DNA of 64,000 bases from Diplonema papillatum. Lineage: Eukaryota. Where the stretch lies: positions 1,408-65,407 of the forward strand of contig JAPJBO010001134.1 of the NCBI GenBank assembly GCA_030068145.1, read 5' to 3'. How positions within the stretch are numbered: position 1 is the first letter of the stretch; each line of letters begins with the position of its first letter. A program made the position numbers and the translations under genes. Below the pieces are notes generated by a model. It had not been told where the DNA came from, did no database searches, and saw nothing but the letters and a program-made list of their open reading frames with translations. Positions 13,060-64,000 of this stretch are shown piece after piece.

Positions 13060-16000
13060 ATAGTAAAACGTCCTCTCCCCCTTTGCTGTATTTAAAAACA
13101 GGGGAAACATTGGAAAGGGCCCCGAGCGGACAGTCGAACGCAGTCTGAGAGATTAGATTGTCAAGCGGCACTCAACTGCTGCGAACCCAGCCCGCTAATG
13201 CGTTCGACGACCTGATGAGTCTCATGATTCTGCAATTCCTTCATTGACTATCGCGACTGGCCGCGGTCTTCATCGTTCCCAGAGGACTGTGAACTTGAAT
13301 TATTGGGTCAGTCCACCATCTTGAGGTACCACCAGGGGTCATCTTGGTGGTATCGCAGTTCACGGGACCACAGGAAGCAGCACAAGGCGACGTGGGCACA
13401 ACTGGCGCGATGCCTGATTTCTTGTACGGACGACCCAAAAAGCGGGACTTCTCTAAAAGTCACTTTTCCGCAGTTCATGACCGGTTGGTGTTGAATGAAG
13501 CTGTTCGATGTCCATCGAACATTTTCGGAAACAATTGAGTGTGGAGGTTCAGTGAGAACACGGGGAGGAAATCAGTCTAAATCGCTGGCATTATCCCCCA
13601 TCCCGGGATAGGGTCCATCCTATCAAGACTACCGGAAGAGCGTTTGAATGTGTAGGGGGTGGTCTTCTGGTAAAAGTTCACAAGACATCAGAGCATACTC
13701 GAGATTTCTAGAAACAAAAGCAAGCAATTCTAGAAAAGGATAGAGGCCTGGATGGTTGACCCTCCTTACGGCTTTCCGCAAGGCACACGGTGGCTCATTG
13801 TGAAGGGTATAAGAGCCCTGTGAACACTGGCAGACCTCATTCCATGGACGGTTCCGTACACAACTGAACATGTCCCAGGGGCGGCCCTACGGGGGGCTGT
13901 TCCACATAGGAAATCCCGAAAAGGGCTGGTAAATCTAGGGAGGGGGATAAAAACAACGAATTGGACTGATGGGGCTACCGTCGATCCCGAGGGACGATCA
14001 GTTTGGTCGTGTGACCTTGGTTTGTTTGGTGAGACTGCTGAAACAAAAATGGGAAGCAAGATGCGGGTTCAGCTTTTTGTGTTTTTCCTTTGCCGACATC
14101 TGGTGCCTTTGGGCCGCCCGGGTATGGACTCTTCCTCATCTCGTCTTTTAGTCTCTGTATGTAGAGCAGACGAATAGGGGGTTAAAAGCTTTTTTTGCGT
14201 TTCCGGCAATATGCGCTCAGTAAGTTGCCCCTTTTGCTTTCTCCATGTGGGCGTACACTTTTCTGGAACACAGATTAGGGATCTTTGAATAATAGCTTTT
14301 CAGGTTTCGGCTCAAACCTGTGGGCGGGACAACGCAGTCTATGTGGCTGAGCAGGCGGTGCCACATTCTCACTGCACGTTCATGTTGTGCTGCAGGTCCG
14401 GGTTTGCGGATAGATCCACTGTCCGTCTCGTTGGATTCTCCGTATTATTTGCCAGCAATGCTTCGGACCGAAGAACGAGAACTTGTTTTGCGTCGGCAGG
14501 CGAAGAGTGGGCTCCCCATTCATGAATTCCGCCAATGCCAGGCACAATACCCGTTTACGTGTGTGAAGGCGACCCAGTTCATGACTTTCTGGTCCAAGTT
14601 TTCAATGGGCTCTGTGCAAAACTTCGGTGATCAAGTTCGCTAGGCTACACAAATCCCTGTTCAGTCACTGACCGAGTTTACCCCCAGTTAAGGCCCTTCA
14701 ATGTATGTTTCGCTGCCGCGTCGTCTGTCTGGGGTATGCACATAGCGCGTTTTCCTGGTTGTTTTCGTCCGTCGGCACCGCCCTCCAATCGCTTTCCTTT
14801 TCCCGAGTTGCTTTTGTACAGCCACGTTGTATATTCAGGTTTCCCACGTTATTTTCAAGTTGCGCCGCAAACGGCGGCTGCCATTGTCCACGGACGCTAC
14901 TCACGCGGCGGTTCATCCTGGTAAATATCTGGCTTAGCACGATTGATGAGCTGTGCGTACTCATCCATGGAGACCACGCGCGTCCGCGTTGTGTCCAGGC
15001 CGTCCACCACCGACACGATGTCATCGTAGGTGTGCGACCACACGTGGACGGGGATCACGCTGTACCCAGCGCTGCTCTCCGGGTCCATGGCTTCTGAATT
15101 GAGGAGGCCGATCAGCTCCGAAACGCTTTGCTGCCCTTGCCACAGACAGTACCGGGCCCCGAGAAGCCAGCCTTGGTACTCAGGCGTCGACACGTACATG
15201 TTGTTCCCATCCAGGTCACAGTAGCCGCTGTACGGGTAGTACAGAACGTACTGCATACCCGCACCGAAGTATGGAGCCGCAGCTGCGGCGGCGGTGGCCA
15301 GATCGGTGGTGCTGCCCATGACGTTGACAACCGCCATGCCGTCTGCTTCGAGGTTGGAGGCCGATTCATTCATAAAAATGCTGGCCCACTTATCGGGCAT
15401 TTCGTCTATGTAAGTGTAGGTGTCGCCGGACACACTGCCGACGAACGTGTCATTCTGTGTCTTGACGCGCTGGAGGTAGTGGTAAATGGGCGCCGCTACA
15501 TCACGCGAGGACACCGACAGCGTCCACCCGACCGGAACGGCACCTCTCCGCGGGCATCCGTACCACTGCGGGCTGGTGGCGAACGTGTTGTCGAGCCATT
15601 GCAAGTTGTCGCCGTCGGTCATCACAAAAGCGATGACGTGCCGGTTGTCGTCGTCTGCTTGTTGCTGTGCGTGCTGCTGCGACTTCGCTGAGGTGCCCGG
15701 GACTGCACTCGGTTTGGGTTGGACATGCCGGCGTGAGAACTGAGGTACCGCGCCCATGCCGTAGTTCGTCATCGTCGCCAAGTTCAGCGCCCAGTCACTC
15801 GCAAGGAGGCCGTTGCCCCTTTCCGAAAGCGCTGAGACCGTGTAGAACTCGTCGGGTCCGTACCCCAAAGTCACCGCGCCTTTGCCTTCGGCGCTGGTGT
15901 ATTTCAGGATCTCGGCCACCATCGACGGGACCGGGCTGAAAGACGGCACGAAGTACACGGGGCACCGACAGAACGCCGCGTAGTCCGCAAGACTCGGCCA

Positions 16001-24608: not shown

Positions 24609-24650
<42 letters not shown>
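24609..24650. repeat. (CA)21 microsatellite immediately 5' of the retrotransposon
   Basis: Direct read: cacacaca... Confidence 0.95.
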
Positions 24651-24652
<2 letters not shown>

Positions 24653-24694
24653 GGGGAAAACCATAACGCACTCAACACATACTCAAACGGTAAA

Positions 24695-25933
24695 ATGACT
24701 ACGAACAACCTCCACGCGGTCCCCCTGGGGCCCGAGGGAATACCCTCGGGCAGCGAAAGGTTCGAAGCCGAAGTGCGTGTGGTGCACCTACCCGAAACCC
24801 GTGCATACACTCTGCGTCTTGAGACGTTGAAGGGGCGGGTAGGTGCGTACGAGCGCCTGGTCGAGCAGCTTGGGTGGGCTGGGGCCAGAGTGCGGATCAA
24901 GAAGGGAGTCGCGCACATCGAGGCGACGGAGCCACCACCAGTTGCCAAGGTGCGCGTTGGCGAGGAGGAAGGCGAAATCGTCGACGTCGAGGCGCGCGAC
25001 CGGGCCCGGCAAGAGGCGCACCGACAGGAGCGCATCCAGCGAACCCGCCAAGAGCTGGACAGCCTCGCCGCTGCAGGACCGCCGAAACGCCTGCCGGACA
25101 ACGGGGCCCCCAGGGGACCCACGTACTCCAAGCCCGAGTTCCTCGCCGAGTTCGGGAAGAAGAAGGGGGAAGACGAGTGGCGCTGGGCGCTCAAAGCGCA
25201 TGAAGAAGTGCGGAAGAGGCAGCTGACGAGACTGCGGGAGCAGCTGAAGGAGCTGTCCCCGACGGACGACGCGGAGATGCGAGAAGAGAGGCGCGAGCAG
25301 GGGAACCAGGACGAGACGGCAGCGGCCTGGGAAGCCTGGGCGCAGCAGCAGAGCAGGCAGCGAGAGGCCTGGCAGAAGGAGCGAACTGCCGCGCGAGAGG
25401 CTTGGGAGGGCGCGTTCGAAAAGCGCTTCCGAAGCTGGGCTGACGCCCAGACGCAGATAGCCACCAAGCGCGAAGACAACGCCTACACGCGCCAGATAGG
25501 GTGGATGGCGGAGACGGAGCAGAAGCTGGACCGTATTACGCAGGAGATGTGCGCCAGAATCGACTCAGCGCTTGGGAGAATTGCACAGGTCGCACAGCAA
25601 TCTGCCGCCGCAGGCGTGCCCGCGCGGACAGACGAGCCCGTACCTGCAATCCAACCGACTCCACCCCCTGCCGAGCCGCCGGTACCTTTAGCCGAAAACG
25701 CCGCGCAGGAGCCCCTCCCGGCCCAGCCCCTCACCACAGCTTCCAAGAAAGGGAAGAAAGCTAAGAAGGAGGCTGACGAAAAGGAGCTGGCCGAGCAGTT
25801 GAAGCAGCTCAACGAAGCTACAAAGAGACCGGTCGCCGGAAAGGCGAAGGGCGGGAAAGGCGGGGGTAAGCAGCAGCTCCTGACTGACATGGTGTCAACC
25901 AACCGCTACAGCCCCATCGATAAAAAGTAGGGG
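24695..25933 (+). CDS. LINE ORF1: coiled-coil (E/R/Q-rich) protein with a Lys-rich basic C-terminal tail
   Basis: ATG at 24695 (MTTNNLHAVPL...). The track ORF beginning at 24527 reads the upstream (CA)n as HTHTHT. The ORF ends at the TAG at 25931-25933, and ORF2 follows in the same reading frame. Confidence 0.6.
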
Positions 25934-25975
25934 GCTGGGCGTGCCGGACAAGAACTGACACCAAGCAAGGAAAAC

Positions 25976-28900
25976 GTGTCAACTGGCGCTGTCCGGTGCG
26001 CCAACCCTACTACTGGCAAGCGAAATCGACGAGGGGAGGAAGTCAAGAGTGTAAACCAGTCAACCGCCGTGAATCAACCGACGCCAGCTGAAAGCGGCGA
26101 CACGGAACTCGACAGGGCGGCTGCGATCTTGCGCGCGAAGCGGATACCGGTTGAGAAAGATGGTAACTGCCAATTTGCCGCGCTGCTGCGAAGTAGTAAG
26201 CTGAGTCTTTCGGCTACTTCCCTAAGGCAGAAGGTAACCTGGCAGCTGCGACACCACCCGCCTTCGGCGTTCCTCCCTACTGATTCGTCTCTATCTGAGT
26301 ATCTTTCCACCGTAGCGCGGGACGGACACTACGGTGACCACCTCACGTTGCAAGCCGCAGCAGAAGTGCTGAAGGCAACTGTGTGGGTACTATCAACAAC
26401 GAATTTGGCGCACCTCAGGTGCGAAGGAAGAGCTGGTAATTCGTCACGCATCATCACCGTGACGTACCGGCCGCAGCACTATGACGCGTTGCACGTACCG
26501 CATGAAACTCTGCAGCTGCTGTCGACCCTCGGCCCCGAGGTGTCACAGCTTCCCCTGAGTGAGATAGCAGCAGACAGTAAACCCAGACTCTCAGCCCGGA
26601 ATACGATAGCGCCCCCTGGTCGCACGATAGTGCTAGCAACGGCAAACGTGGGTTCCATAAATGCGAGAAGTCGGACAGTGGCGACCCTCCCGGCGGACAT
26701 CGTCGCTCTGCAAGAGACCAGGGCGGGCCCAGAGACAAAAAGGACATGCGGGCTGTTTCTTGCGGCATACGGATGGGACTGTCACTGGGGCGAAGACGTG
26801 CCTGTTGTTGTGGGTGCGAACGGTATAGGACAACGGGTGCCAGGAGGCGCAGCTGTCGCCACCCGCGGCATGGTGGCTAGTGTCTCCCAGCCCACAACAG
26901 AGTTGGAGAGAGAGTTGGCGAGGAGTACACGAGTCGCGCACGCGGTGGTGGCAACGGGAAATGCGCGTATGGTGCTGCACGTGATATCGGTGTATGCACC
27001 CGTAGGCAGGGAGGCGGCGGTGGTACGGGATCGGGAGAAGCTCATTGCAGATGTTTTCGAAATGGCGGCAGGACTCGGGCAGGTACCGATAGCTGTCATG
27101 GGTGACTTCAACACGCCGGCAGAGGAAAGCATGTCCCTGACCACAGCCTGCCAAAGTGGATGGGTCGATGCGGCGTCAGCGGCTGCGCGAGCGGGGTCAC
27201 AGGACGCACCGCCCACCTGCTGGGCGGCGGCGGCGGGCTCCCGAATAGACATGTGCTTCCTGAACGCAGTAGCAGCACAGACCGTGGTGACCGTCCAAAC
27301 CGCGAAAGCGGGAGAGTATGACATACCGACCCACTGCCCAATCTTTGTCACACTCAACATACCGGCTTTCACGCCGCCCAAACGCAACCACCGGATACCC
27401 GCCCCTTTCCCGAGGAGAGTGCCAGTGCAGACGCAGGAGCAGAAGCAGAGCATGCTAGCGTCGGCCTTGCGTCGAAAGCGAACGGAAAGTGGGGCGGACG
27501 GGGCGTTGAGGAATGCGTCTGAAGTGGCGGAGGCGTACCTGATTGATTTGCACCGAGAGAACCTCGAACCAGGGTCGACTGCTTACCGGGGTAGAGCCGG
27601 CGGCTACCGCACACGGGAGGCGCACGCATCTGCGAGGCAGGCATGCACGACGCGAGGAGCTATGAATTGGTCCACGAAGCAACGCGATAGAGTTCTTGGA
27701 ATGCTACGCTCAGTGGTCGCGGAGGCAAGGCAGAGGCTCGGTAGCGGACAAGTGGGTGCGATGACGGTAGCAGAACGCAACGCACGAAACGCGTTGCGGA
27801 GAAGAAATGTGGAAGAGTTCTTACCGCAGCTCACGCACTTCGGAAGCAGCGATGAGTTGCAGGAACTCGTGGCGGCGGTAGAGAGGCTGGAAGGATCCCA
27901 ACGTGAAGCGATTGCCGCGCTGAAGACGCAGCGCTCACGCCTCTGGAAGGATCGAATGCAGAAGGCTTGGAGTGGCCCAGAAAAAGGCGATATATATCGG
28001 TTTCTAGCTGGACAGCAAGGGATCCCAACGGCATTTCTGCGACGACAGGATGGCACCTTAACCGCGTGCCCGACGGAGATCGATGAGATGCTGAGAGGGC
28101 CCGGCGCCTGGGGAGGTATATTTCAAAAGTATGCGGACCAACCGGAGCCAGAGTGGGAGGCATTCAAGTCGCAGTACGCACGGTATCTACCCGCGCCGCA
28201 TGCGATGGAATGCGAGCCCATCAGTGCTGCTGATGTGGACGCGGCACTCAAGAAGATGAAAAAGACATCGTCCCCCGGACTACATGGATGGCGCGTGCAC
28301 GAGCTACGACAACTCCCCTCGGAAATCCTACAACTCATGGCAGATGCCATGAACGCAGTGGAAAGCGAGGGACGATGGCCGGAACAGCTAATGCATGCGA
28401 TCATTCACCTGCTTCCGAAGCCCGAAAGCAACGGGGACCCCTTGTCGCAACGACCGATTTCGATAACGCCTGTCCTGTACCGGATATGGGCAGCCGTAAG
28501 GGCGAAGGCAGCACTCGCGTGGATGGACGAGATTGCGCCGAGCGGCCTGCATGGATGTCGGAAGGAACATGGAACAGACGACCTGGTATGGCACTTGGCA
28601 GCGCTTATCGAAGAGGCGCACCTAACGGGAGAGCCACTCTTTGGCCTAGCGCTGGACTTCCAAAAGTGCTTTGACTCGGTACCGATCGAAGTAGCCTTTA
28701 AGCTGGCCGAGGAGCTGGGGTTTAACGAGGTTGTACTGCGGACTCTGAGGGCAGCCTACACCAACATGCGGCGTCACTTCCGGGTGGGAGCAACGGTTGG
28801 AGAAGGCTTCGTGCCTACGAACGGGATAATGCAGGGATGCCCGCTGAGTGTCATCCTAATTAACGTCATCATCAGTGTCTGGATGCGACACGTAGCGGAC

Positions 28901-31768
28901 ATCGAAGCGGCGATTCCGCTATCGTACGTCGATGACGTGTATGCAATGCTGAAGACGTTTGCCGATTTAGAGGAGGCAGCCAGGCGGTCAGGAATGTTCG
29001 CCGGGCTGACCGGGATGAAAGTCTGCACGCAGAAAAAGTCGCATTTTTTCACGACGGCGTCGGACACCCCGCAAACCCTTGATTATGCGGAAAGCGACGG
29101 CACAGCAGTGAACAACGGGCGACAAGAAGGTATACAAAGGCGGGTGACATTCGACGTTCTCGGCGTGATGCTAACCACAGAGAAGGTGCCACCGGGGGAG
29201 GTAATTCGGCCGTCGAAACGGATTGTGGAGAGGAACTCCGAAGCTGAGCGGGTGCTGAAAAGGGCAGCTTGCCTCCCGCTGCCAGGCGAAGCGAAGGACC
29301 TCGTGGTCAGCATGTCAGCGGGAGCTAAACGGTACTACGGTGCAGCAGTATCGGGAATGACGAAGCGGGACAGCGTGCGCCTGAGAAGATTGTTCACGGA
29401 GGCGATGTGGACTGGGCCGCCGCGCCGAGCTCAAGAGGCGGTCCTACATATCCTACATCATGGGCACCGACTCGACCCGGTAGTTGTGCCGGCATACAGA
29501 AGAATCACCACCTGGGCAGTGCAACTCAAGAAGTGGGAGTCCGCGAGATCTCTGTCACAGACAGCGTGGGAGCACAGCGACTCGCTTGCGACATTGCATG
29601 GACCTTTCGCCTTCTTCAAAGAAGCGCTAGACGGACTCGGGTGGCGATGGGTGGCACCAACCAGCATCGCCTACACGAACGAAGCCGGAGACGAGGTAGT
29701 GCATGATGCAGCGGCACAGGACAACACGAAGCTTCTACAGCACGACCTGCGATACGCTTTGAGACTACGCGAAATGGCTCAGCTCGCGGCAAGGCGGGGA
29801 GGAGACTTCGGGGGAGTGCGGGACGGGGTGGATTACCAGACAACCCGGCACCTGCTGGAGATGCACGATTCCCCACTCACCGCGTATCAAGCCGGCATGC
29901 TGAAATCAGTGATTGTGGGAGCCACGCCGGCGGCTGGACGAACAGGGGCCGGTGAAGAAAGCTGTCTATACTGCAATACGGAGGAACGAGAAACGGTGGA
30001 TCACCTTTTCTGGAGCTGCCCCGCTTGGGAGCACTTGCGCGCGAAGTACGAAGACATAAGGACCATGCAGGTAAACTGGCCCCCGTGTCTGCGCTTGTGC
30101 GGGATAGCCCCAGCCCCTCAGGTAGACGAAAGCACCTCCGTGCTGCCGGCAGAAAAGGAGAAAAGGCGGCATGTAGTGAAGCGACTGCAACTGTTCTTTG
30201 TCGAAGTGCTGAGGGAACGCCAGGGTGCCGACGGCCTGCTCGACAGGTCAGCCCGGCATCACAGGACAGAGAGCTACCCGCGAGGCTGGAGACCAACTGA
30301 ACCCTGCCGACTCGCAGTCCCTTTCATTGCGCCATCCGCCGTGACAACGAAATGGAAATACGGACGGGAAATGTGGATGGCGTTCACCGACTGGCTGCGG
30401 CAGGTGAAATGGGCACCCCCGGGACACGACGAGCTGGGCATCAGCTTCATCGAGTTAGCTGTAGAGTTCGAAATGCACACCGGACAGCGGCTCCCTGACC
30501 TCAAAAGCAGGTACTATACAGCAGTACCTCAAGCACAGACAGGCAAGGTGACAGCAGCTCGCACAACGCTAGCGGATGGGGAAATGGGCGACAGCAGGTT
30601 GCTTGTGTGCTTCGATGGTGGGGCGAGAGCGAACGGAACCGCCTTCGCCGTTGCTGGCGCAGGGGCGGTGATGTACCGAGACGGCGTCAAGGTGTCGGAG
30701 GTAATCCTGCCGCTGCCCACCGTGCGCAGCAATAACGTGGCAGAGTATGAAGCGGTGCTAGCGGGCCTGCATCTGCTGAACGAAGCGAACGATGCGGACG
30801 GCACGCAGTGTACGGTGCGGGGGGACTCGGCACTGGTAGTGGGGCAGCTTTTGCGACGCCTGGCATGTTCCGAGGAGCTCAAGCCATACCAGACACGCGC
30901 TGCCAGAATGGTTTCTTCCCTGCAGCGACGGATGACAGTGCGCATCGAGCACGTCAAGCGCGAGAGGAACACGGACGCTGATGCCCTGAGTAACGCCGCC
31001 ATGGACTTGGTGCAGCGCCAGCGGCCGACTCCTCGAAGGCAAGAGAAGATGCTAACCGACTTTCGCCGGTCCGCCTTGGGCAAAGCGCTTAGCCTCGTTG
31101 AGATGGGGAAGGCGTACAAGAAGGTGACGGGGCAGCCGTGGTTCTATGGCCATGAGTACTCCTCCACCGTGCTGACATCCCTGGGAGGGACGGTTGTACG
31201 GGGCGTCTCCCGACGAGCGCAGCTGTCAGAGGCGACAGAAGGCATCATCGTGAGGATACGCGAACACGCGCAGGCGGGAATCGCGGACGAACATGAGAGC
31301 AGCCCTTACCCGCCACACCTGAAGTGGGCCGCAACCTTCTTGCCAGAGGAGGCTTACCCGGCAGGATGGACACAGGGAAAACCCGACTGGAAAGGCAGAA
31401 CGGAAGAGGCCGAAAGGGGTTCAAGCACTGACCCGCGCAAAGGTGCCCCCCCGTGCGAGGCCCCAGAAGGCGCTGCTAACACTTCCCGCCCTGGAGTGGT
31501 TTGCTCGCTCCACAAAAAGCCGCGATGCAGTGAGTGCGTAAAAAAGCGTCTACCGGCGGAGACCTGCTGTCGCCTCAAGCAGCATCATCACGGATCGGAT
31601 GGTCTAAGGCCCCGGATGCACTTCTGCACAGCTCACAGACTAGGACGTTGCGGCGATTGTGTGGCTGAAAACGAAGCATTAGCCAGCTGCTGCACAAAGC
31701 ATCACGCAAACAGGAGAGCGAATGGAGGCCCCCACTCCCAGCCCGGGGGTGCATCGGCCGTCACCTAG
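25976..31768 (+). CDS. LINE ORF2 polyprotein (1930 aa). N to C: OTU-like cysteine protease, AP (exo/endo/phosphatase) endonuclease, reverse transcriptase, Cys-rich knuckle, RNase H, Cys/His-rich C-terminus.
   Basis: OTU: VEKDGNCQFAALLRS, then GDHLTLQAAAEVL and RPQHYDAL. Endonuclease: IVALQETRAG, and later GDFNTPAEE. Reverse transcriptase: the F/YxDD box is YVDDV. Knuckle: CLYCN...H...C. RNase H: FDGGARANG, VAEYEA, GDS. C-terminus: CSLHKKPRCSECVKK...CTAHRLGRCGDC. Confidence 0.85.
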   Translation: MSTGAVRCANPTTGKRNRRGEEVKSVNQSTAVNQPTPAESGDTELDRAAAILRAKRIPVEKDGNCQFAALLRSSKLSLSATSLRQKVTWQLRHHPPSAFLPTDSSLSEYLSTVARDGHYGDHLTLQAAAEVLKATVWVLSTTNLAHLRCEGRAGNSSRIITVTYRPQHYDALHVPHETLQLLSTLGPEVSQLPLSEIAADSKPRLSARNTIAPPGRTIVLATANVGSINARSRTVATLPADIVALQETRAGPETKRTCGLFLAAYGWDCHWGEDVPVVVGANGIGQRVPGGAAVATRGMVASVSQPTTELERELARSTRVAHAVVATGNARMVLHVISVYAPVGREAAVVRDREKLIADVFEMAAGLGQVPIAVMGDFNTPAEESMSLTTACQSGWVDAASAAARAGSQDAPPTCWAAAAGSRIDMCFLNAVAAQTVVTVQTAKAGEYDIPTHCPIFVTLNIPAFTPPKRNHRIPAPFPRRVPVQTQEQKQSMLASALRRKRTESGADGALRNASEVAEAYLIDLHRENLEPGSTAYRGRAGGYRTREAHASARQACTTRGAMNWSTKQRDRVLGMLRSVVAEARQRLGSGQVGAMTVAERNARNALRRRNVEEFLPQLTHFGSSDELQELVAAVERLEGSQREAIAALKTQRSRLWKDRMQKAWSGPEKGDIYRFLAGQQGIPTAFLRRQDGTLTACPTEIDEMLRGPGAWGGIFQKYADQPEPEWEAFKSQYARYLPAPHAMECEPISAADVDAALKKMKKTSSPGLHGWRVHELRQLPSEILQLMADAMNAVESEGRWPEQLMHAIIHLLPKPESNGDPLSQRPISITPVLYRIWAAVRAKAALAWMDEIAPSGLHGCRKEHGTDDLVWHLAALIEEAHLTGEPLFGLALDFQKCFDSVPIEVAFKLAEELGFNEVVLRTLRAAYTNMRRHFRVGATVGEGFVPTNGIMQGCPLSVILINVIISVWMRHVADIEAAIPLSYVDDVYAMLKTFADLEEAARRSGMFAGLTGMKVCTQKKSHFFTTASDTPQTLDYAESDGTAVNNGRQEGIQRRVTFDVLGVMLTTEKVPPGEVIRPSKRIVERNSEAERVLKRAACLPLPGEAKDLVVSMSAGAKRYYGAAVSGMTKRDSVRLRRLFTEAMWTGPPRRAQEAVLHILHHGHRLDPVVVPAYRRITTWAVQLKKWESARSLSQTAWEHSDSLATLHGPFAFFKEALDGLGWRWVAPTSIAYTNEAGDEVVHDAAAQDNTKLLQHDLRYALRLREMAQLAARRGGDFGGVRDGVDYQTTRHLLEMHDSPLTAYQAGMLKSVIVGATPAAGRTGAGEESCLYCNTEERETVDHLFWSCPAWEHLRAKYEDIRTMQVNWPPCLRLCGIAPAPQVDESTSVLPAEKEKRRHVVKRLQLFFVEVLRERQGADGLLDRSARHHRTESYPRGWRPTEPCRLAVPFIAPSAVTTKWKYGREMWMAFTDWLRQVKWAPPGHDELGISFIELAVEFEMHTGQRLPDLKSRYYTAVPQAQTGKVTAARTTLADGEMGDSRLLVCFDGGARANGTAFAVAGAGAVMYRDGVKVSEVILPLPTVRSNNVAEYEAVLAGLHLLNEANDADGTQCTVRGDSALVVGQLLRRLACSEELKPYQTRAARMVSSLQRRMTVRIEHVKRERNTDADALSNAAMDLVQRQRPTPRRQEKMLTDFRRSALGKALSLVEMGKAYKKVTGQPWFYGHEYSSTVLTSLGGTVVRGVSRRAQLSEATEGIIVRIREHAQAGIADEHESSPYPPHLKWAATFLPEEAYPAGWTQGKPDWKGRTEEAERGSSTDPRKGAPPCEAPEGAANTSRPGVVCSLHKKPRCSECVKKRLPAETCCRLKQHHHGSDGLRPRMHFCTAHRLGRCGDCVAENEALASCCTKHHANRRANGGPHSQPGGASAVT

Positions 31769-31828
31769 CTTAATCTGAGCGTGGTCGTACTTTCGTGAAG
31801 GGAGGCACCACGTTAAAACGGGTCCGTA

Positions 31829-31862
31829 ACACACACACACACAAACACAAACACAAACACAA
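31829..31862. repeat. (AC)n/(ACACAAAC)n microsatellite-like 3' tail of the LINE, followed by (TCAC)3
   Basis: Direct read at 31829-31876. Confidence 0.8.
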
Positions 31863-31925
31863 TCACTCACTCACTCGCTGACGGAAGGTAACACAAAACA
31901 GAAGCGCTGTGTGCCGCGCAACTTT

Positions 31926-48273: not shown

Positions 48274-49107
48274 CTAAGACGACGATGACGACGACGACGA
48301 TGAACATGATGATGATGCTGATGATGATGATGATGATGACGACGACACGTTGCTTCGCTTTATGGCCTTGGGCGGCGGACAAGAGGGCGGGCATGACGAG
48401 GCACGTTTTCGTTTGCCTTGTGGGACTGCGGGAACAGCTGCTGAGGAACGATTGTCAGTTGTTGACGGGGCGGGTTTAGTGGCCGGTGTCGTGCGTTTGC
48501 CTTGTGGGACTGCGGGAACAGCTGCTGAGGAACGCTTGTCAGTTGTTGACGGGGCGGGTTGAGTGGCCGATGTCGTGCGGAGGCGTTTGTGTGTTCGCAG
48601 TGTATCGGGCTGGTGGGTTTGCTTTCTTTTCGCTGAAGCCGTAACAACAGGGAGCTCAATAGGCAAAGCAGATGCAGGCTGCGATGGAGCTGCTACGGCA
48701 GACGGCGCTGCAGAGGCTGATGTGGACCCTCTTGGCCGATAAGTGGCAGGTCTTGATTGAGCAGTGTTGGCAGGCGACGACGTAGCTGCGTTGGCGGCTG
48801 GGGCAACTCGTGAACGAGCACCCGCGGAAGGGGTGCTTCGAGCTTTCGGCTGCTGCCCAGGCGATGAGGTAGCTGCGTTGGCGTCTGGGGTAACTCGCGA
48901 TCGAGAAACCGCGGATGGAGTGATGCTTGGGCGGGCCACCGGCTGCTGCCCAGTCGGACCTGCCACGCGAGCCGTCAGCAGAACCGCAACGATGCTGGCA
49001 ATTGCGATGTTACCCCGGAGGCCCTTTACCCCGAGCCAATGCGCGAACCCGAAGGTGCCGAAGTAGAATTCTCCTTGGTGGGGACAACTCGAAACAATGA
49101 AATTCAA
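48274..49107 (-). CDS. Possible repetitive Ser/Thr/Pro/Ala-rich protein with a poly-Ser C-terminus and internal repeats of about 85-88 bp x2. Coding status is uncertain.
   Basis: ORF 48274..49107. It contains RSSAAVPAVPQGKR x2 and PSAGARSRVAPAANAATSS x2. It abuts the 102-bp array but sits in a different frame. Confidence 0.25.
   Translation of the reverse strand: MNFIVSSCPHQGEFYFGTFGFAHWLGVKGLRGNIAIASIVAVLLTARVAGPTGQQPVARPSITPSAVSRSRVTPDANAATSSPGQQPKARSTPSAGARSRVAPAANAATSSPANTAQSRPATYRPRGSTSASAAPSAVAAPSQPASALPIELPVVTASAKRKQTHQPDTLRTHKRLRTTSATQPAPSTTDKRSSAAVPAVPQGKRTTPATKPAPSTTDNRSSAAVPAVPQGKRKRASSCPPSCPPPKAIKRSNVSSSSSSSSSASSSCSSSSSSSSS
48277..48345. repeat. (GAC/GAT)n trinucleotide microsatellite (encodes poly-Ser on the minus strand)
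   Basis: The read gacgacgatgacgacgacgacgatgaacatgatgatgatgctgatgatgatgatgatgatgacgacgac. Confidence 0.9.
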
Positions 49108-49890
49108 GTGTCTCCCTCAAAGTTTGAAGGTTTCCAGGGTGGGGACATCTCCGGACGTCAAAATAGAGGTGTCTCCTTGGTGGGGACAACTCGAAACGAT
49201 GAAATTCAAGTGTCTCCCTCAAAGTTTGAAGGTTTCCAGGGTGGGGACATCTCCGGATGTCAAAATGGAGGTGTCTCCTTGGTGGGGACAACTCGAAACA
49301 ATGAAATTCAAGTGTCTCCCTCAAAGTTTGAAGGTTTCCAGGGTGGGGACATCTCCGGATGTCAAAATAGAGGTGTCTCCTTGGTGGGGACAACTCGAAA
49401 CAATGAAATTCAAGTGTCTCCCTCAAAGTTTGAAGGTTTCCAGGGTGGGGACATCTCCGGACGTCAAAATAGAGGTGTCTCCTTGGTGGGGACAACTCGA
49501 AACAATGAAATTCAAGTGTCTCCCTCAAAGTTTGAAGGTTTCCAGGGTGGGGACATCTCCGGACGTCAAAATCGAGGTGTCTCCTTGGTGGGGACAACTC
49601 GAAACAATGAAATTCAAGTGTCTCCCTCAAAGTTTGAAGGTTTCCAGGGTGGGGACATCTCCGGACGTCAAAATAGAGGTGTCTCCTTGGTGGGGACAAC
49701 TCGAAACAATGAAATTCAAGTGTCTCCCTCAAAGTTTGAAGGTTTCCAGGGTGGGGACATCTCCGGATGTCAAAATAGAGGTGTCTCCTTGGTGGGGACA
49801 ACTCGAAACAATGAAATTCAAGTGTCCCCTTCAAAGTTTGAAGGTTTCCAGGGTGGGGACATCTCCGGATGTCAAAATGGAGGTGTCGTA
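49039..49890. repeat. Tandem array with a 102-bp unit, about 8.3 copies, 95-99% identical. The array is open in at least three reading frames.
   Basis: The period was measured as 49085 to 49187. The unit is CAACTCGAAACAATGAAATTCAAGTGTCTCCCTCAAAGTTTGAAGGTTTCCAGGGTGGGGACATCTCCGGACGTCAAAATAGAGGTGTCTCCTTGGTGGGGA. Confidence 0.9.
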
Positions 49891-53219: not shown

Positions 53220-54790
53220 GACCACGGATGATCCTAACGGCACAGATAGACTCCGTCAGGGCTCAAGGTGGTCGTCTGTTTGCGAGTAGGGGGCACCGTG
53301 TCAAACCAGGACAACGTGCTTCATGATCCTAACGGCACAGATAGACTCCATCAGGGCTCAAGGTGGTCGTCTGTTTACAAGTAGGGGTGTTCCCGTGCCA
53401 AACCTGGGTAATATGTTCATCTCCAACCACGGATGATCCTAACGGCACAGATAGACTCCGTCAGGGCTCAAGGTGGTCGCCTGTTTGGGCACCGTGTCAA
53501 GCCAGGACAACGTGCTTCATCTCCGACCACGGATGATCCTAACGGCACAGATAGACTCCGTCAGGGCTCAAGGTGGTCGTCTGTTTGCGAGTAGGGGGCA
53601 CCGTGTCAAACCAGGACAACGTGCTTCATGATCCTAACGGCACAGATAGACTCCATCAGGGCTCAAGGTGGTCGTCTGTTTACAAGTAGGGGTGTTCCCG
53701 TGCCAAACCTGGGTAATATGTTCATCTCCAACCACGGATGATCCTAACGGCACAGATAGACTCCGTCAGGGCTCAAGGTGGTCGTCTGTTTGGGCACCAG
53801 GACAACGTGCTTCATCTCCGACCACGGATGATCCTAACGGCACAGATAGGCTCCGTCAGGGCTCAAGGTGGTCGTCTGTTTACAAGTAAGGGTTCCCGTG
53901 CCAAACGAGCTCTAATACGTTCATCTCCGACCACGGATGATCCTAACGGCACAGATAAACTCCGTCAGGGCTCAAGGTGGTCGTCTGTTTACAAGTAAGG
54001 GTTCCCGTGCCAAACGAGCTCTAATATGTTCGTCTCCGACCACGGATGATCCTAACGGCACAGATAGACTCCGTCAGGGCTCAAGGTGGTCGTCTGTTTA
54101 CAAGTAAGGGTTCCCGTGCCAAACGAGCTCTAATACGTTCATCTCCGACCACGGATGATCCTAACGGCACAGATAAACTCCGTCAGGGCTCAAGGTGGTC
54201 GTCTGTTTACGAGTAGGGGTGTTCCCGTGCCAAACCTGGGTAATATGTTCATCTCCAACCACGGATGATCCTAACGACACAGATAGACTCCGTCAGGGCT
54301 CAAGGTGGTCGTCTGTTTACAAGTAAGGGTTCCCGTGCCAAACGAGCTCTAATACGTTCATCTCCGACCACGGATGATCCTAACGGCACAGATAAACTCC
54401 GTCAGGGCTCAAGGTGGTCGTCTGTTTACGAGTAGGGGTGTTCCCGTGCCAAACCTGGGTAATATGTTCATCTCCAACCACGGATGATCCTAACGACACA
54501 GATAGACTCCGTCAGGGCTCAAGGTGGTCGTCTGTTTACAAGTAAGGGTTCCCGTGCCAAACGAGCTCTAATACGTTCATCTCCGACCACGGATGATCCT
54601 AACGGCACAGATAAACTCCGTCAGGGCTCAAGGTGGTCGTCTGTTTACAAGTAGGGGTGTTCCCGTGCCAAACCTGGGTAATATGTTCATCTCCAACCAC
54701 GGATGATCCTAACGACACAGATAGACTCCGTCAGGGCTCAAGGTGGTCGTCTGTTTACAAGTAATTCCCGTGCCAAACCAGGTCTAATAT
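53220..54790. repeat. Satellite array, about 15 units of roughly 96-112 bp, with two alternating spacer variants. Shared core: GATGATCCTAACGGCACAGATAGACTCCGTCAGGGCTCAAGGTGGTCGTCTGTTT.
   Basis: The unit starts at 53225, 53333, 53437, 53533, 53631, 53737 and so on. The ORFs at 53668..53998 simply translate the repeat. Confidence 0.9.
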
Positions 54791-55020
54791 GTTCATCTCC
54801 GATCACAGATGATGAAGTAGCGGGTACCGCCCTAAAATCGGCGTATATTCTGAGCTTCTGAGACTGGAGGTAACTGTAGCTCTCTGCGGCCTGTGCTACG
54901 TCTTTCTTCTGGCTAGAAACCAGCTAGGACTGGAATGAATGATTCAAACGTCAAATGGCAACATAGGATGGCACGGACATAACAGGAGAATGAACAAAAG
55001 AAAGAAGTAAGGGTACAAAG

Positions 55021-60129: not shown

Positions 60130-63100
60130 GTGTCATGCTTCGGTCGCTTCTTGCCCCGCGTACGTAGATTGTTTCCGCGGCCGAGATCTCAACTCCTGAG
60201 CCTGCTCGTCTTCGCGGCTCCGCTTCGGCTGGGCTTGTGGGCTGTCCTCTTTTGGGGTGCGCTTCTCGTTCAGAGGCGGCTGCTGCGGCTTCGGCTTCTT
60301 GCGGGCGCTCCCACCGGCTTGCTCTTCGTCGCGTCCGCGCTTCTGCTGGGAGCAGGCGCCGTCCGTCCCTTTTGCACGCTCACCGTTGAACGGGGACACC
60401 GTCCGGAATCCGCTTCGGGTCGCCTCCCTGAACCGCCAGCCTCTGCCCCCTCCTGGCAGGCGCCGACACATCCTCGGGACCCCACTGGGCAGCACGATCA
60501 CTCCTTTGTCCACCGCGCTCCGGGGACACATCCGCGCCCCACGACTCGCCGTTAAAGCCAGGGCGCGTACGCAGCAGCTGCGTTTCCAGTACTTCTCTCG
60601 TTTCTTCCCCCCTCGGAATATCGGTCTTCGCGTGTACCCCGTAATGTACGGTGAGCCACCAACCGTCCTCAGCGTGTCCACCCGGACTTTCTTTTCCGCC
60701 GGCATCAGCGAGCCGCCTCGGGCAGCCACCAGCGCGCTGCTCAGGGTCGCCAACATCTTCGCCATCTGCTTCGTTCGCGTGAGGAGCGAGACTTTCAAGG
60801 AGGTCGCGATAAGGGGGCCCGGCAGGTCTACGCCGGTGAAGACCTCAAAGTCTATCGCCAGCTCGCCGTCGAGACCTCGCCTGCCGTCCAGCCATGCTTG
60901 TGCCGCCCGGAAGACCCTCTCTCCGCCGACTGCCGCTACTATTTCAGGTCGATCAATGCTGCCGAGGTCAACAGGGTGGGCACTGCACGTCTCGTGGTCC
61001 AACTCTCTCCACGGGTGGTTTCGCTCGGCCGGGATGTCTCCCCGCTCCAGCTCTCGCTTCTTCCGGCATATTTCGGCAAACATCGTTTGCAGCAACTCCA
61101 CCTTTACCCCTCGGCAGGATGCAATGAATGGTCAGGCAGCGTGGCCACGCACTGCGGTCGAAGAGCGCCACCTCTTCGTACTGGAGGTTCCGGTGCACGT
61201 CATCGTATGCCCCGCAGCGCCACCATACGTGTTCAAGTGTTTCCTCCTCACCGCTCGCGCAGTGAAGGCATAGCGCGGCACAGCGCGGTGTGTGACCTCG
61301 TCGACATTGACCGGCGATAACCCCCGCGACGTCCCTCGCAACGTCAGGTGCCGTCGCGGACGCCGTCCAGAGCCAGTTGGTACTCCGATGGTCCACTCCT
61401 GCTGACATGCCGCTCAAATCCGGACGTCGCTTTCCCAACTCCTTCGCCGCCACGTGCGCACCAGGTCTCTCACCAGGTGCTTGAGCGCGCCGTTCTCAAG
61501 CTCCAGAAGCCCAAGTGTCGTTTCATTCTCGGCTCTGACATCCGATACATCGCTATCCCACCGTAACCCAACTCTCCGCACGTATTCGGCGGCAATCCCC
61601 ACGGGGCCGTAAAGGCGCACCTCATCTCCGTACCCTTCTCTTACTCTCTTCCGACACATTTTCACGAGCAGCACTATGGAGGCGCATGGTAGGACTACGT
61701 GGGGGTCTAGCAGATGCGCCTTGTTGAACACTCCGGGCACCACCTCTTGCGACCTCCTGAGCCGCGCCGTACCCCACAGGCCCCGCACGAGCGACGCGGA
61801 AACCGGTTCATCCCTCTCACCGTTGGCACCGCGAACGGCGTACCGCAAACAGCCGCTGGCACCATCGACATCGACGCCGGCCAGGCGCTCCACCTCCTCG
61901 CGCCGTTCGTCAAACCTTGCATCCGATACTCTCCGCGTCCGACGGGTGCTCACGCGGCCACCCGATCACGAGCTCGCTCACTGTCCCGAGGGTCTCGTCG
62001 CCAACTTTCAAAGTGGTCCTGTACTTCGGCTGCGTGCTGAAGGCGTGCGTCTTTTGCACATTGAGCTTCATTCCGGTCAGCCGGCAGAGCTCGTCCACCA
62101 ACCCCAGGCCGAGCTGCACACACTCTTCCCGTAGGTTCGAGAGCAGGGTCATGTCGTCTGCGTACGACTCCCGTGGTCCCCGCCTCTATGCATCTTGTCA
62201 ACACGGAGAGCTGCGCGTTGATCAGGATTACGCTCAGTGGGCACCCCTGCAGGATGCCGTTCGTGACCTCGAAGGTCTGTCCCACGCCCATAGGCAGGTT
62301 GAACCGCCTCCTGAGACGCTTGTAGACGTCGCGGAGTGGGGCCAGAACCCTGTCGTGCATTCCCATGTCCTCTACAAGTTTGAGCACCAGCTGCTGCGGC
62401 ATGCGGTCGAAGCACTTCGCAAAGTCGAGGGCGACCCCGCAGAGCGGCTCTCCGCCGAGCAGCGCCTCCTCGATCTGCGTTGTCACTTCGAAAAGGACAT
62501 CCTCGGCACTGTGTTTCGGCCTGAACCCGTGTTGCGTCCCGCAGATCCATGCCTCCTGCCATTGTACAATGTCGCGCAGTCGGACACAGGCCCATAGCCT
62601 GTAGACCGCGCTCGTAACGGTTATTGGCCGCATGGCCAGAGGCGCGATTGCATTGAACACCGCCACCAGGGCATCCAGCAGCAGCAGCGGCAGCTTCTTC
62701 AGCTCCGCCATGCTCCAGCCATCGACCGGGGGCACTCGCAGACTTCTTCGTCAACACCCTCTCGAGGTCGAGACCCACAACATCCACGCATGGCATCGCA
62801 TGTTTAGTGATGAACCGCCCATACCCATAGGGGCCTTGAACCTTCCGTAGGAGGACTGCGGCTTACTCACGTAAAGCCTGAGGATGGGATCCCACTCGCG
62901 CTGGAGAATTAAGTCCATCTCGTTCATGCTGGCTGGCACAGCATTCGCTGATCTGAGCACTGTCACACCCTCCATCGGCCTCCGCTTGCACAACCCGAGC
63001 AATTGTGCTTTGTCCGAGCAATGCAGCCTCTGCATCTTCGCTTCCAATTGTGACACGGGGTTCTTCCGCGCACGGGCTGCCAGCCCCTGGCTCCGTTGCT

Positions 63101-64000
63101 CCAGGTTCCGCACCTGCATCGATGGTCGGCGGTACCTCCCAGCCCCCTGACCCACTCCATTTGCCCCGGCAGACACTTTAGCGCAGCGTATTCGCCCACG
63201 TCTTCTCGAGGTGGCGCGGGAGCTGGAATGGCCCATTCGCGGCCGCCATCACGTCTCGAAGCCCAAGTACGTATGCGCTGACTCCGTTGGAGGCCTTGCG
63301 GCACTTGACGGTGGCATACGTAGCTGCCCCTGCTCCTTTCGGCGCTGCTCTCGCAGATACTGGCACTCTCTTCGGTTGTCTCTCTAGACCTCTCCCCCGG
63401 TACGCTTTCACGTGGCTGTCCAAATGCCCCTGTCCACACAACAATCCGAGCAAATATCCCTCGCAGGCCTCTGACGCTGCCCGTCACGTCGCTGGAATCA
63501 ACCGCGGCGAACCCGCTAGCAGCAAGCGCCCTCGCGCCTCTGCGGCGTCGACGTCGGCCAGCTCCCTGACCGGTAGCGGGCGCGGCATCCGGTACCTGTC
63601 GCACAATTCAGCATACGTGTCCAGCTGCAGCTCCACCGTCAGCATGCTGTGTTGGGGGATTCTGCACCCCTCCCCGTCCACAACCATGTCGGTGCTGCAG
63701 GACTTCAGCGAGCGGGTCGCTACCTCGCTTAGGAGGATGTAATCAATCCTGGAACCGAGTGTGGTTTCACGCTCGTATGTATTCGGAGGCGCTCCGTCGC
63801 TGCACAGCTCGGCAGCATCGTGCCACCCTGTCCTGAGCATGCACGCCAGGGCATCCGATGACTCGCGGTTGGTGTTAAAGTCACCAACGATGGCCACCGG
63901 CACGTCTCCAAGGGCCGCAGCCTGTTTGTGGACGTCAGCGATGAGACGCTCTCTGTCGTCGGCCTTCTTGTAGCCGCAGTGGGCGTACACGGAGAACACG
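60130..64000 (-). mobile_element. Degenerate, frameshifted non-LTR retrotransposon related to the 24.6-31.9 kb element. It is truncated by the window end, and its 5' part lies beyond 64000.
   Basis: The minus-strand ORF fragments follow the same domain order. 63484..63999 is the AP endonuclease (VAIVGDFNTNRES, SRIDYILLS). 61950..62735 is the reverse transcriptase (GVALDFAKCFD, ILQGCPLSVILIN). 60968..61453 is the Cys/His knuckle (CLHCASGEEETLEHVWWRC). The fragments are split across three frames. Confidence 0.65.

Follow-up and report, generated by a model that had tools for sequence, protein, structure and literature searches.

The locus and the architecture of the element

We analyzed a window of 64,000 nt of DNA from Diplonema papillatum, and the element coordinates given below are positions in this window. 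Positions ~24651-31870 (+), between the host genes DIPPA_16415 and DIPPA_16416 and on the opposite strand, hold a full-length, recently amplified 7.2-kb non-LTR (long terminal repeat) retrotransposon of D. papillatum, i.e., a long interspersed nuclear element (LINE). Three open reading frames (ORFs) of the window are exact matches to the GenBank D. papillatum proteins DIPPA_16414, DIPPA_16415 and DIPPA_16416, encoded on a contig of 65,407 bp. Taken as a whole, and with a probability that we put at roughly 0.6, the element is best explained as a young LINE whose second ORF (ORF2) carries an OTU domain and would be expressed by readthrough of a UAG stop codon, with the OTU domain acting as an isopeptidase. 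The features are the following, L001 and L009 being related elements, P0220 a GenBank gene model, and P0001, P0002 and P0010 further relatives:

24609-24650, no strand: (CA)21 microsatellite abutting the 5' end of the element (TRF and sequence)
24651-24694, +: short 5' untranslated region (UTR), AGGGGGGAAAACCATAACGC...GGTAAA (boundary inferred by comparing the window with the P0220 locus)
24695-25930, +: ORF1, 411 aa, ATG to TAG (ORF list, sequence, exact GenBank matches, AlphaFold2 model)
25928-25930, +: single in-frame UAG between ORF1 and the ORF2 frame (sequence; likewise in L001 and L009)
25931-26002, +: candidate readthrough stimulator, spacer plus 13-bp stem (pairing kept in the window, L001 and L009)
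25931-31768, +: ORF2 frame, open from the codon after the UAG to the TAG at 31766-31768 (ORF list, sequence)
26108-26509, +: OTU cysteine protease domain, ORF2 aa 45-178 (Pfam, profile, AlphaFold2/Foldseek, motifs)
26636-27340, +: apurinic/apyrimidinic (AP)-type endonuclease (APE) with N, E, D-x-N, D and H motifs (Pfam PF03372, E 1e-13; motifs)
28418-29164, +: reverse transcriptase (RT), with YVDD at 28925-28936 (Pfam PF00078, E 6e-17)
29963-30019, +: CCHC knuckle after the RT, CLYCN...HLFWSC (weak zf-RVT match, motif)
30605-31000, +: RNase H domain with D-E-D-D residues (RVT_3, E 1e-8; RNase_H, 23 bits; motifs)
31496-31705, +: C-terminal Cys/His-rich region, ORF2 aa 1841-1910 (kept in P0001, P0002 and P0010)
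31769-31870, +: ~60 nt of 3'UTR and, at 31829-31870, a (CA)n/(CAAA)n tail (sequence)

With an APE followed by an RT with YVDD in one ORF, a simple-repeat tail and dispersed copies, the element is an APE-type LINE. An initial annotation of this DNA had described one continuous ORF of 1930 amino acids that combines an AP endonuclease, a YVDD reverse transcriptase, a CCHC-like knuckle and RNase H, and this description holds. In the ORF list, 25976-31768 (+) is a frame of 1930 codons without internal stop; the motifs, SYVDDV among them, could be located, and the Pfam domains follow one another in the order OTU (aa 62-143), Exo_endo_phos (aa 221-434), RVT_1 (aa 815-1063), zf-RVT (aa 1326-1350, a weak match below threshold) and RVT_3/RNase H (aa 1544-1675). 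All four Pfam families that it had named for ORF2 were recovered, the OTU family at 23.7 bits against a gathering score of 23.3 and the others with the values listed above. In the Cys/His-rich tail, the motif C..H..RC..C...CC...HH occurs twice and a conserved ...GASAVT forms the end; this region is common to P0001, P0002 and P0010. A search of Pfam and of PDB sequences gave no match to it, and it may represent a new zinc-binding module of this LINE lineage.

Regarding the ends of the element, self-comparison revealed neither an LTR nor a terminal inverted repeat (TIR), the only repeats being (CA)n at both ends. The (CA)n that flanks the element on either side could represent a microsatellite target or a duplication of one. 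The (CA)21 tract at the 5' end may be a target-site remnant or reflect a variable 5' junction. At the P0220 locus the element starts with 'AGGGGGGAAAACCAT', preceded by just 'CACAC', and in L001, a 46% identical relative, (CA)7 stands directly 5' of the 5'UTR. Altogether, (CA)n at the 5' ends and the (CA)n/(CAAA)n tail could result from insertion into CA microsatellites or from a variable 5' junction. No known RNA family was found by Rfam over the element.

The ORF1 product is predicted to begin with a small alpha/beta domain, to continue in a long coiled coil (aa 98-305) and to close with a basic disordered tail; a single-sequence AlphaFold2 model is confident for the coiled coil only. The protein has no Pfam match, and BLASTP detects no similarity between the ORF1 products of the window and of L001. 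GenBank has exactly this ORF1 protein, under the name 'hypothetical protein', on 10 D. papillatum contigs; clustered at 90% identity, it falls in a group of 15 sequences spread over dozens of contigs. Because an identical ORF1 occurs on multiple contigs and the 1930 codons of ORF2 are free of stops, the family is young and may still be active. This is in agreement with the initial annotation, which regarded the element as intact and possibly active: ORF1 and the terminal repeat tail are both present. ORF2 of the window family is annotated nowhere in GenBank, and its best database match, P0001 (66% identical), belongs to another D. papillatum family and is labelled 'Ribonuclease HI'. The D. papillatum genome paper lists ~2500 retroelement-like gene models and defers a rigorous transposon description.

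The OTU domain at the start of ORF2

The Pfam OTU match (PF02338, E 7.6e-5) is marginal in score, and independent support was sought for that reason. The Cys box KDGNCQF (ORF2 aa 61-67, nt 26156-26176) and the His box QHYDAL (aa 167-172, nt 26474-26491) lie where the initial annotation had placed its DGNCQF and HYDAL motifs; the distance it gave needs correction, since Cys65 and His168 are 103 and not ~110 residues apart. The catalytic residues predicted are Cys65 (26168-26170), His168 (26477-26479) and Asp170 (26483-26485). Most relatives score 28-44 bits on PF02338, and P0037, P0087 and P0111 score ~22 bits, just under the threshold. Searches with the window sequence alone were of little help: single-sequence phmmer of the OTU segment against the PDB gave a nairovirus OTU as best match at a non-significant E of 0.55, and a word-index search of 5.8 billion proteins with this segment returned nothing.

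We then built an OTU family profile from 7 LINE-borne OTU domains. This profile matches OTUD3 (4bou) at E 2e-11, and the OTU domains of Dugbe virus (a nairovirus) and OTUD5 at ~4e-9. In the alignment to OTUD3 and the nairovirus vOTU, the catalytic Cys motif is matched by 'gDGnC' and the His motif by 'HYD', and D23, G24, C26, H129, Y130 and D131 (alignment numbering) are invariant in all 7 LINE domains. Applied to 1.84 billion representative proteins, the profile recovered 2366 OTU proteins at E <= 1e-3. Moreover, an AlphaFold2 model of ORF2 aa 40-195, obtained from a 4-sequence alignment, reached a pLDDT of 76.9 and a pTM of 0.75. When it was compared with the PDB by Foldseek, all of the 50 hits listed were OTU domains (49 with a probability of 1.00 and one of 0.99; best E 3e-6), among them the deubiquitinases OTUD3, OTUD2, yeast Otu2, OTUD1 and nairovirus vOTUs. 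The initial annotation had considered that the assignment might fail on a sub-threshold score with unaligned catalytic residues; what we found is a score above the threshold and boxes that align to those of OTUD3. Overall, the profile and the predicted fold indicate that ORF2 starts with a genuine OTU cysteine protease domain, in which the predicted Cys/His/Asp triad is intact.

Expression of ORF2 and role of the OTU domain

The initial annotation treated ORF2 as a free-standing ORF, which is not what the sequence supports: the frame has no AUG at its start and continues that of ORF1 behind a single UAG and a conserved hairpin. At the junction, ORF1 ends in ...NRYSPIDKK, followed by the UAG (X) and by GAGRAGQELTPSK (GAGRAGQ...). 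The GTG at 25976 counts as a 'start' only under bacterial ORF rules and is an artefact, as the frame is open from the ORF1 stop onward. The first ATG of ORF2 stands at 26870, inside the APE (codon 299 counted from 25976), with none in the 298 codons before it, and both the OTU domain and the catalytic N and E motifs of the APE are encoded upstream of it. Judging from the sequence, a protein begun at this ATG would have no OTU domain and a crippled endonuclease. In L001 and L009, ORF1 and one TAG are likewise followed by an open stretch without ATG, of 131 codons in the former and 11 in the latter; the first ATG of L001 comes after the conserved first helix of the OTU domain. Frame continuity between ORF1 and ORF2 is found in the window, L001, L009 and L006-L008. 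Reassignment of TAG to a sense codon was also considered and rejected, as 2 of the 3 exactly matched host proteins in the window end precisely at TAG, and so does ORF2.

Downstream of the stop codon, a G-rich spacer of 7 nt (25931-25937) precedes a 13-bp stem, whose 5' arm (25938-25950) and 3' arm (25990-26002) enclose in the window a 39-nt loop with an inner hairpin; the loop measures 36-39 nt across the window, L001 and L009. The arms of the three stems are:

Window: 5' arm GGCGUGCCGGACA, 3' arm UGUCCGGUGCGCC
L001: 5' arm GGCGCUCCGGCCA, 3' arm UGGCCGGGGUGCC
L009: 5' arm GGCAUCCCGGCCA, 3' arm UGGCCGGGGUGCC

All 13 pairs form in each of these sequences (39/39 cells), and three of them are changed on both sides (G-C/A-U, G-U/C-G and A-U/C-G). 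When the pairing register is slid by 1-3 columns, 31-41% of the cells pair and no double changes are seen. None of 2000 shuffles of the window sequence gave a stem of at least 11 bp at this distance, a 13-bp stem occurs at none of 1834 other in-frame positions of ORF2, and the 80-nt fold after the stop has a z of -3.8. In the L001/L009 pair, the post-stop linker shows the lowest dS of ORF2 (0.17, against 0.23-0.54 in the rest), as expected if RNA structure also constrains the linker.

Given that no AUG occurs before the middle of the APE, that ORF1 is in frame and that a covarying 13-bp hairpin begins 7 nt after the UAG, we infer that ORF2 is probably made as a minor ORF1-ORF2 fusion by programmed, hairpin-stimulated readthrough of the UAG, in analogy to retroviral gag-pol. 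Ribosomes would translate ORF1 into a coiled-coil, basic protein (ORF1p) and mostly terminate at the UAG; the hairpin would stimulate readthrough into the fusion, and in this way a low ORF2:ORF1 ratio would be set. In the readthrough class of murine leukemia virus (MLV) gag-pol, the signal consists of a UAG, a G at +4, a spacer of ~8 nt and a stable structure. The LINE junction resembles it in that a G comes directly after an in-frame UAG, that a short purine-rich spacer (7 nt, against 8 nt in MLV) leads to stable structured RNA, and that the downstream enzyme frame has no start codon of its own. It differs in that the structure is a long bipartite hairpin, as folded without a pseudoknot model, instead of a pseudoknot, in that the element is a LINE and not a retrovirus, and in that the signal is known from sequence alone. 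We found no description of structure-stimulated stop readthrough between ORF1 and ORF2 of a LINE in the literature searched (Repbase and subscription journals lay outside this search).

Several points weigh against readthrough as just described. The column-shuffle control is weak, with 43 of 500 shuffles matching the observed values and only three sequences from two lineages available, and whether the post-stop peptide or the RNA stem is what is conserved cannot be told apart. In the P0010 family, ORF2 lies in the +1 frame with its own ATG. In the P0017 family, UGA-CUA is followed after 16 codons by an in-frame ATG, and no significant hairpin is found (z = +0.7 in L006). The junction strategy is thus not universal among OTU-bearing LINEs (OTU-LINEs). 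Furthermore, the SART1 LINE requires a downstream structure for UAAUG stop-start coupling, and ORF2 of mammalian L1 has been described as translated by unconventional termination-reinitiation.

The latter two cases bear on a different mode of expression, namely termination at the UAG and reinitiation at a nearby non-AUG codon (e.g., the GUG at 25976) or internal entry, in which the hairpin would hold the post-termination ribosome, as in SART1, and OTU-APE-RT would be a separate protein from the start. The ATG of the P0017 family so soon after the in-frame UGA, and the separate ATG of the P0010 family in the other frame, would fit such a mechanism. However, no AUG is at hand in the window, nor within 131 codons in L001; frame continuity in the window, L001, L009 and L006-L008 would be needless under reinitiation, and the UAG, the +4 G, the spacer of ~7-8 nt and the stable structure match the MLV-type class. 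We regard reinitiation as a serious but less probable alternative, and retain readthrough of the UAG as the preferred explanation for how ORF2 is expressed.

As for its role, we lean towards the OTU domain being a ubiquitin or ubiquitin-like isopeptidase carried on the ORF2 protein (ORF2p), as sequence, model and analogy suggest. Deubiquitinases are the nearest sequence and structure matches of the LINE OTU, which supports this role. It is also favoured because related OTU domains sit on transposons without a polyprotein (the integrase-type L002-L004, the DDE_1 transposase P0014 and the Helitron P0111, which carries UCH as well), and because other LINEs have independently gained other deconjugating proteases (Josephin and Ulp1). 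Acting in this manner, the OTU domain would strip ubiquitin from the element's own proteins, from the ribosome translating it or from factors at the insertion site, and deubiquitination would protect the scarce ORF2p, or its ribonucleoprotein particle, from ubiquitin-dependent quality control or restriction. A 2026 preprint on 2A-like peptides (PMC13405545) notes Josephin and OTU deubiquitinases on ORF2p and ties them, speculatively, to relief of ribosome-stall-dependent protein loss. A hairpin-induced pause at the stop codon could trigger such ribosome-stall surveillance, which we take as a lead and not as a result.

It is also conceivable, though in our view rather improbable, that the OTU domain is mainly a cis-acting processing protease, i.e., the LINE counterpart of the retroviral protease (PR) and of the OTU-like proteases of arteriviruses and tymoviruses. 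It would then cut the fusion upstream of the OTU domain, and perhaps downstream too, thereby freeing ORF1p and an APE-RT-RNase H protein, and deubiquitination would be secondary. Viral OTU-like proteases combine polyprotein processing with deubiquitination, which counts for this role. Two observations speak for it and against a primary isopeptidase: the OTU is the first domain after the junction, in frame and without a start of its own, which fits processing at least as well, and ubiquitin-tail-like motifs occur ~30 residues upstream of the Cys box in three other families (RRLRGGG in L001 and L009, RMVGGG in P0010 and WLGGGG in P0017). In addition, PLGGG and LPGG are present between OTU and APE in P0017 and P0010, and the nearest non-OTU relatives by RT, P0005 and P0007, carry a 2A-like ...NPGP at the same place, just before the APE. 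In the window copy, however, which belongs to a young family, the aligned residues are KRNRRGEE, the ORF1/OTU junction lacks an LxGG motif and neither OTU boundary has an [LIVMR]xGG nearby; GG motifs are common in this GC-rich coding sequence, their position not being conserved across all families. Moreover, the P0010 family keeps the OTU domain even though its ORF2, in another frame with its own ATG, leaves no obvious fusion to cut, and the DNA transposons that bear related OTU domains have no polyprotein to process. An isopeptidase acting on ubiquitin or ubiquitin-like marks is thus the role that we favour.

Both functions could be united in a retroviral-style plan, with a hairpin-stimulated readthrough polyprotein in which the OTU domain would act as its own protease, freeing ORF1p, and as a deubiquitinase that blunts the ubiquitin-dependent quality control of ribosomes or proteins set off by the recoding stall. 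We consider the complete plan speculative and less probable than either alternative above; if true, this would be a novel way for non-LTR retrotransposons to recode and process their products, and a novel function of an OTU domain. The functional ideas of the initial annotation, i.e., manipulation of ubiquitin pathways and self-processing, are likewise to be read as inferences. Its suggestion of the ISG15 pathway as a target has to be dropped, as ISG15 is, to our knowledge, a vertebrate protein, so that it offers no candidate substrate in a diplonemid.

Distribution of OTU-bearing LINEs and comparison with known systems

The order OTU-APE-RT(-RNase H) recurs in further D. papillatum families (P0008, P0009 and P0201), of which P0201 starts with MLGRACPVPGDGNCQF and is labelled 'ubiquitin thioesterase L96' in GenBank. 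OTU-APE-RT is also found in transcripts of Diplonema japonicum (P0087, P0181 and P0012), in P0010 (17 cluster members) on a eukaryotic 646-kb contig of an ENA long-read metagenome, and in a further ENA sample, as P0002 and P0203, which share 46% identity with the window. JGI metagenomes contain it in P0017 and P0037, which represent a different LINE lineage with Exo_endo_phos_2, a classical RNase_H and a C-terminal CCHC. Between D. japonicum P0181 and the window ORF2 the alignment is collinear, running at 27% identity from the Cys box past the end of the RT. In the L001/L009 pair, dN/dS of the OTU domain is 0.138 (dS 0.29), with values of 0.083 in the APE, 0.042 in the RT and 0.069 in RNase H. 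In a neighbor-joining tree of 70 OTU domains, drawn without support values, most of the domains borne by LINEs and other transposons group with one another and away from the majority of short OTU proteins.

The recurrent domain order, the invariant catalytic residues and the low dN/dS exclude mis-assembly, one-off host capture and a dead relic, and the comparison indicates that the OTU domain is a conserved, selected part of this LINE lineage and no captured host fragment. That it is extraneous, i.e., a host OTU gene fragment joined by mis-assembly (a possibility raised in the initial annotation) or by one-off transduction, or else a decayed inactive relic, would fit the Pfam score barely above threshold and the non-significant PDB and empty word-index searches with a single sequence, but is extremely improbable in view of the same order at many independent loci, in further families and species, D. 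japonicum transcripts and unrelated metagenome contigs down to 27% identity, the invariant catalytic residues, a dN/dS of 0.14, the strong profile and fold evidence, and the passage from OTU to APE without a stop codon or frame break.

The Cys box is missing from the GenBank models P0003, P0004 and P0009; to judge by P0201, gene prediction probably either set in at an internal Met or introduced a spurious intron across the ORF1 stop. The models P0003, P0009, P0199 and P0220 join ORF1-like, host or other LINE 3' sequence to ORF2 or ORF1 and bypass both the OTU Cys box and the stop of ORF1, as if the absent start codon had forced the prediction of introns. A second, degraded LINE fragment of a different family runs off the end of the window (61112-63999, -); its RT is 44-46% identical to that of the main element and to D. 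japonicum P0181, and its 5' part, where an OTU domain would be, lies beyond the window end. In the P0017 family, the N-terminus of ORF1 shows a weak OTU-like match (L006 298-3105, JGI 3300060432; aa 39-122, E 0.006, 'GQGRCLFDAL'), and this family may carry two OTU-like modules. The P0010-family element on the 646-kb contig (L005 3159-12513, ENA ERZ25333236) lies inside an actin gene: the called 'ORF1' of 931 aa begins with actin residues (Pfam Actin, E 2e-73), a called Actin-family gene follows the 3' end of the element, and further actin copies are nearby.

LINEs are the most widespread retroelements of eukaryotes, and how ORF2p is dosed and escapes quality control is known for a few animal elements only. 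A whole protist LINE lineage that, judging from its conservation, keeps an active-looking deubiquitinase-type protease at the start of ORF2 adds OTU as a third protease class on LINEs, beside Josephin and Ulp1, and lends weight to the view that transposons with unrelated mechanisms profit from the removal of ubiquitin or ubiquitin-like marks. In addition, the in-frame UAG and the covarying hairpin suggest a gag-pol-style readthrough in a non-LTR element, which is possibly new. D. papillatum is transformable, as gene replacement experiments are reported in its genome paper. Repeat regions, mostly dispersed repeats, make up 52% of its assembly, and GenBank lists OTU-LINEs wrongly under the labels 'Ribonuclease HI', 'ubiquitin thioesterase L96' or 'hypothetical protein' and gives them artificial introns; a correct element model would improve the annotation of this genome.

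Elsewhere in the window, an isolated partial match to 5.8S rRNA was detected at 13166-13284 (-) (Rfam RF00002, 53 bits, model positions 25-154). The D. papillatum genome paper describes thousands of scattered 28S rRNA gene fragments, to which this 5.8S fragment may be related. Two long tandem arrays are also present, one of 102 bp x 8 (98% identity) inside a 346-aa ORF at 49070-49887, and one of 109/219 bp x 9.2/4.6 at 53811-54813.

Placement of the element among known LINEs was examined through its hallmarks. The best PDB sequence matches of the RT are human L1 ORF2p (E 4e-9) and Bombyx R2 (E 3e-8); as these are about equal, a clade call from PDB similarity was rejected. The position of RNase H after the RT suggests an I/Ingi-like grade, by architecture only. 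The element lacks the hallmarks of Ingi/L1Tc, having no NPG(P), a (CA)n instead of a poly(A) tail and two frames split by a UAG; L1Tc has a single ORF and a poly(A) tail. Use of 2A StopGo, reported for L1Tc of trypanosomes (like diplonemids, euglenozoans), was rejected as well, since an NPG(P) motif occurs in no OTU-LINE examined. The closest non-OTU relatives of the window RT, P0005 and P0007, lie on ENA contigs of 68 and 76 kb, and their 2A-like motifs (FGEAQNPGP at aa 37-51 and IGEAANPGP at aa 79-93, respectively) stand just upstream of the endonuclease, in the place that OTU takes in the diplonemid elements. P0005 and P0007 are LINEs whose enzyme polyprotein carries, just before the APE, a device that sets an upstream peptide apart; in their case it is a 2A StopGo peptide, and the window element has no NPGP.

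OTU domains have been described on Ginger1 and Helentron DNA transposons. They share PF02338 and very similar motifs (DGNCQF, DGTYGDHITLQAAA) with the window element, but belong to class II elements in which the OTU is C-terminal to the integrase or a separate domain or ORF, with no RT and no ORF1/ORF2 recoding. The nearest profile matches include both a DDE_1 transposase that bears an OTU and a Helitron that combines OTU with UCH. An OTU-profile scan of metagenomes yielded no diplonemid LINE copies, just three integrase-plus-OTU fragments, L002-L004 (OFEM01004859.1, OFEP01004130.1 and ERZ1740055 NODE-39257). These are Ginger1-like fragments in which putative integrase-like ORFs are followed by an OTU domain ~40-42% identical to the LINE OTU, with a frame break inside it in L002 and L003.

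The initial annotation considered a deubiquitinase-like protease on a retrotransposon unusual, a fair statement that has to be qualified by precedents: Josephin deubiquitinase domains are known in Dualen LINEs, Ulp1 in NeSL/Utopia, and an OTU in Symbiodinium (PMC13405545). Besides this last mention, no other OTU on a LINE, and no description of OTU-LINEs in diplonemids, was found in the literature covered by the search defined above. The Symbiodinium necroappetens ORF2p, compared here by its one-sentence description (PMC13405545), which comes with no family analysis, also has an N-terminal OTU on a LINE ORF2p; it comes from a dinoflagellate and carries a second RT and a 2A-like peptide, whereas the diplonemid OTU-LINEs have no 2A motif. 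NeSL and Utopia-1_TSP of nematodes differ from the window element in that their protease is of the Ulp1/SUMO-protease class and in that they are target-specific, with a restriction-like endonuclease and no APE, but their non-LTR protein, too, has at its N-terminus a cysteine protease from a class that deconjugates ubiquitin-like modifiers.

Membership in Dualen was rejected, as the window element has no Josephin and no restriction-like endonuclease (no Pfam match in the C-terminal 272 aa); the lone 'KPD' of ORF2 is set among hydrophilic residues and is not kept in P0002. The Dualen/RandI elements of the green algae Chlamydomonas and Haematococcus thus differ in carrying Josephin (MJD class) instead of OTU, in their host lineage, and in the second, restriction-like endonuclease that defines Dualen and that is not detectable here. 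Like the window element, they combine APE, RT, RNase H and a deubiquitinase-class cysteine protease in a non-LTR ORF2-type protein, and in the Haematococcus cases that protease is N-terminal as well.

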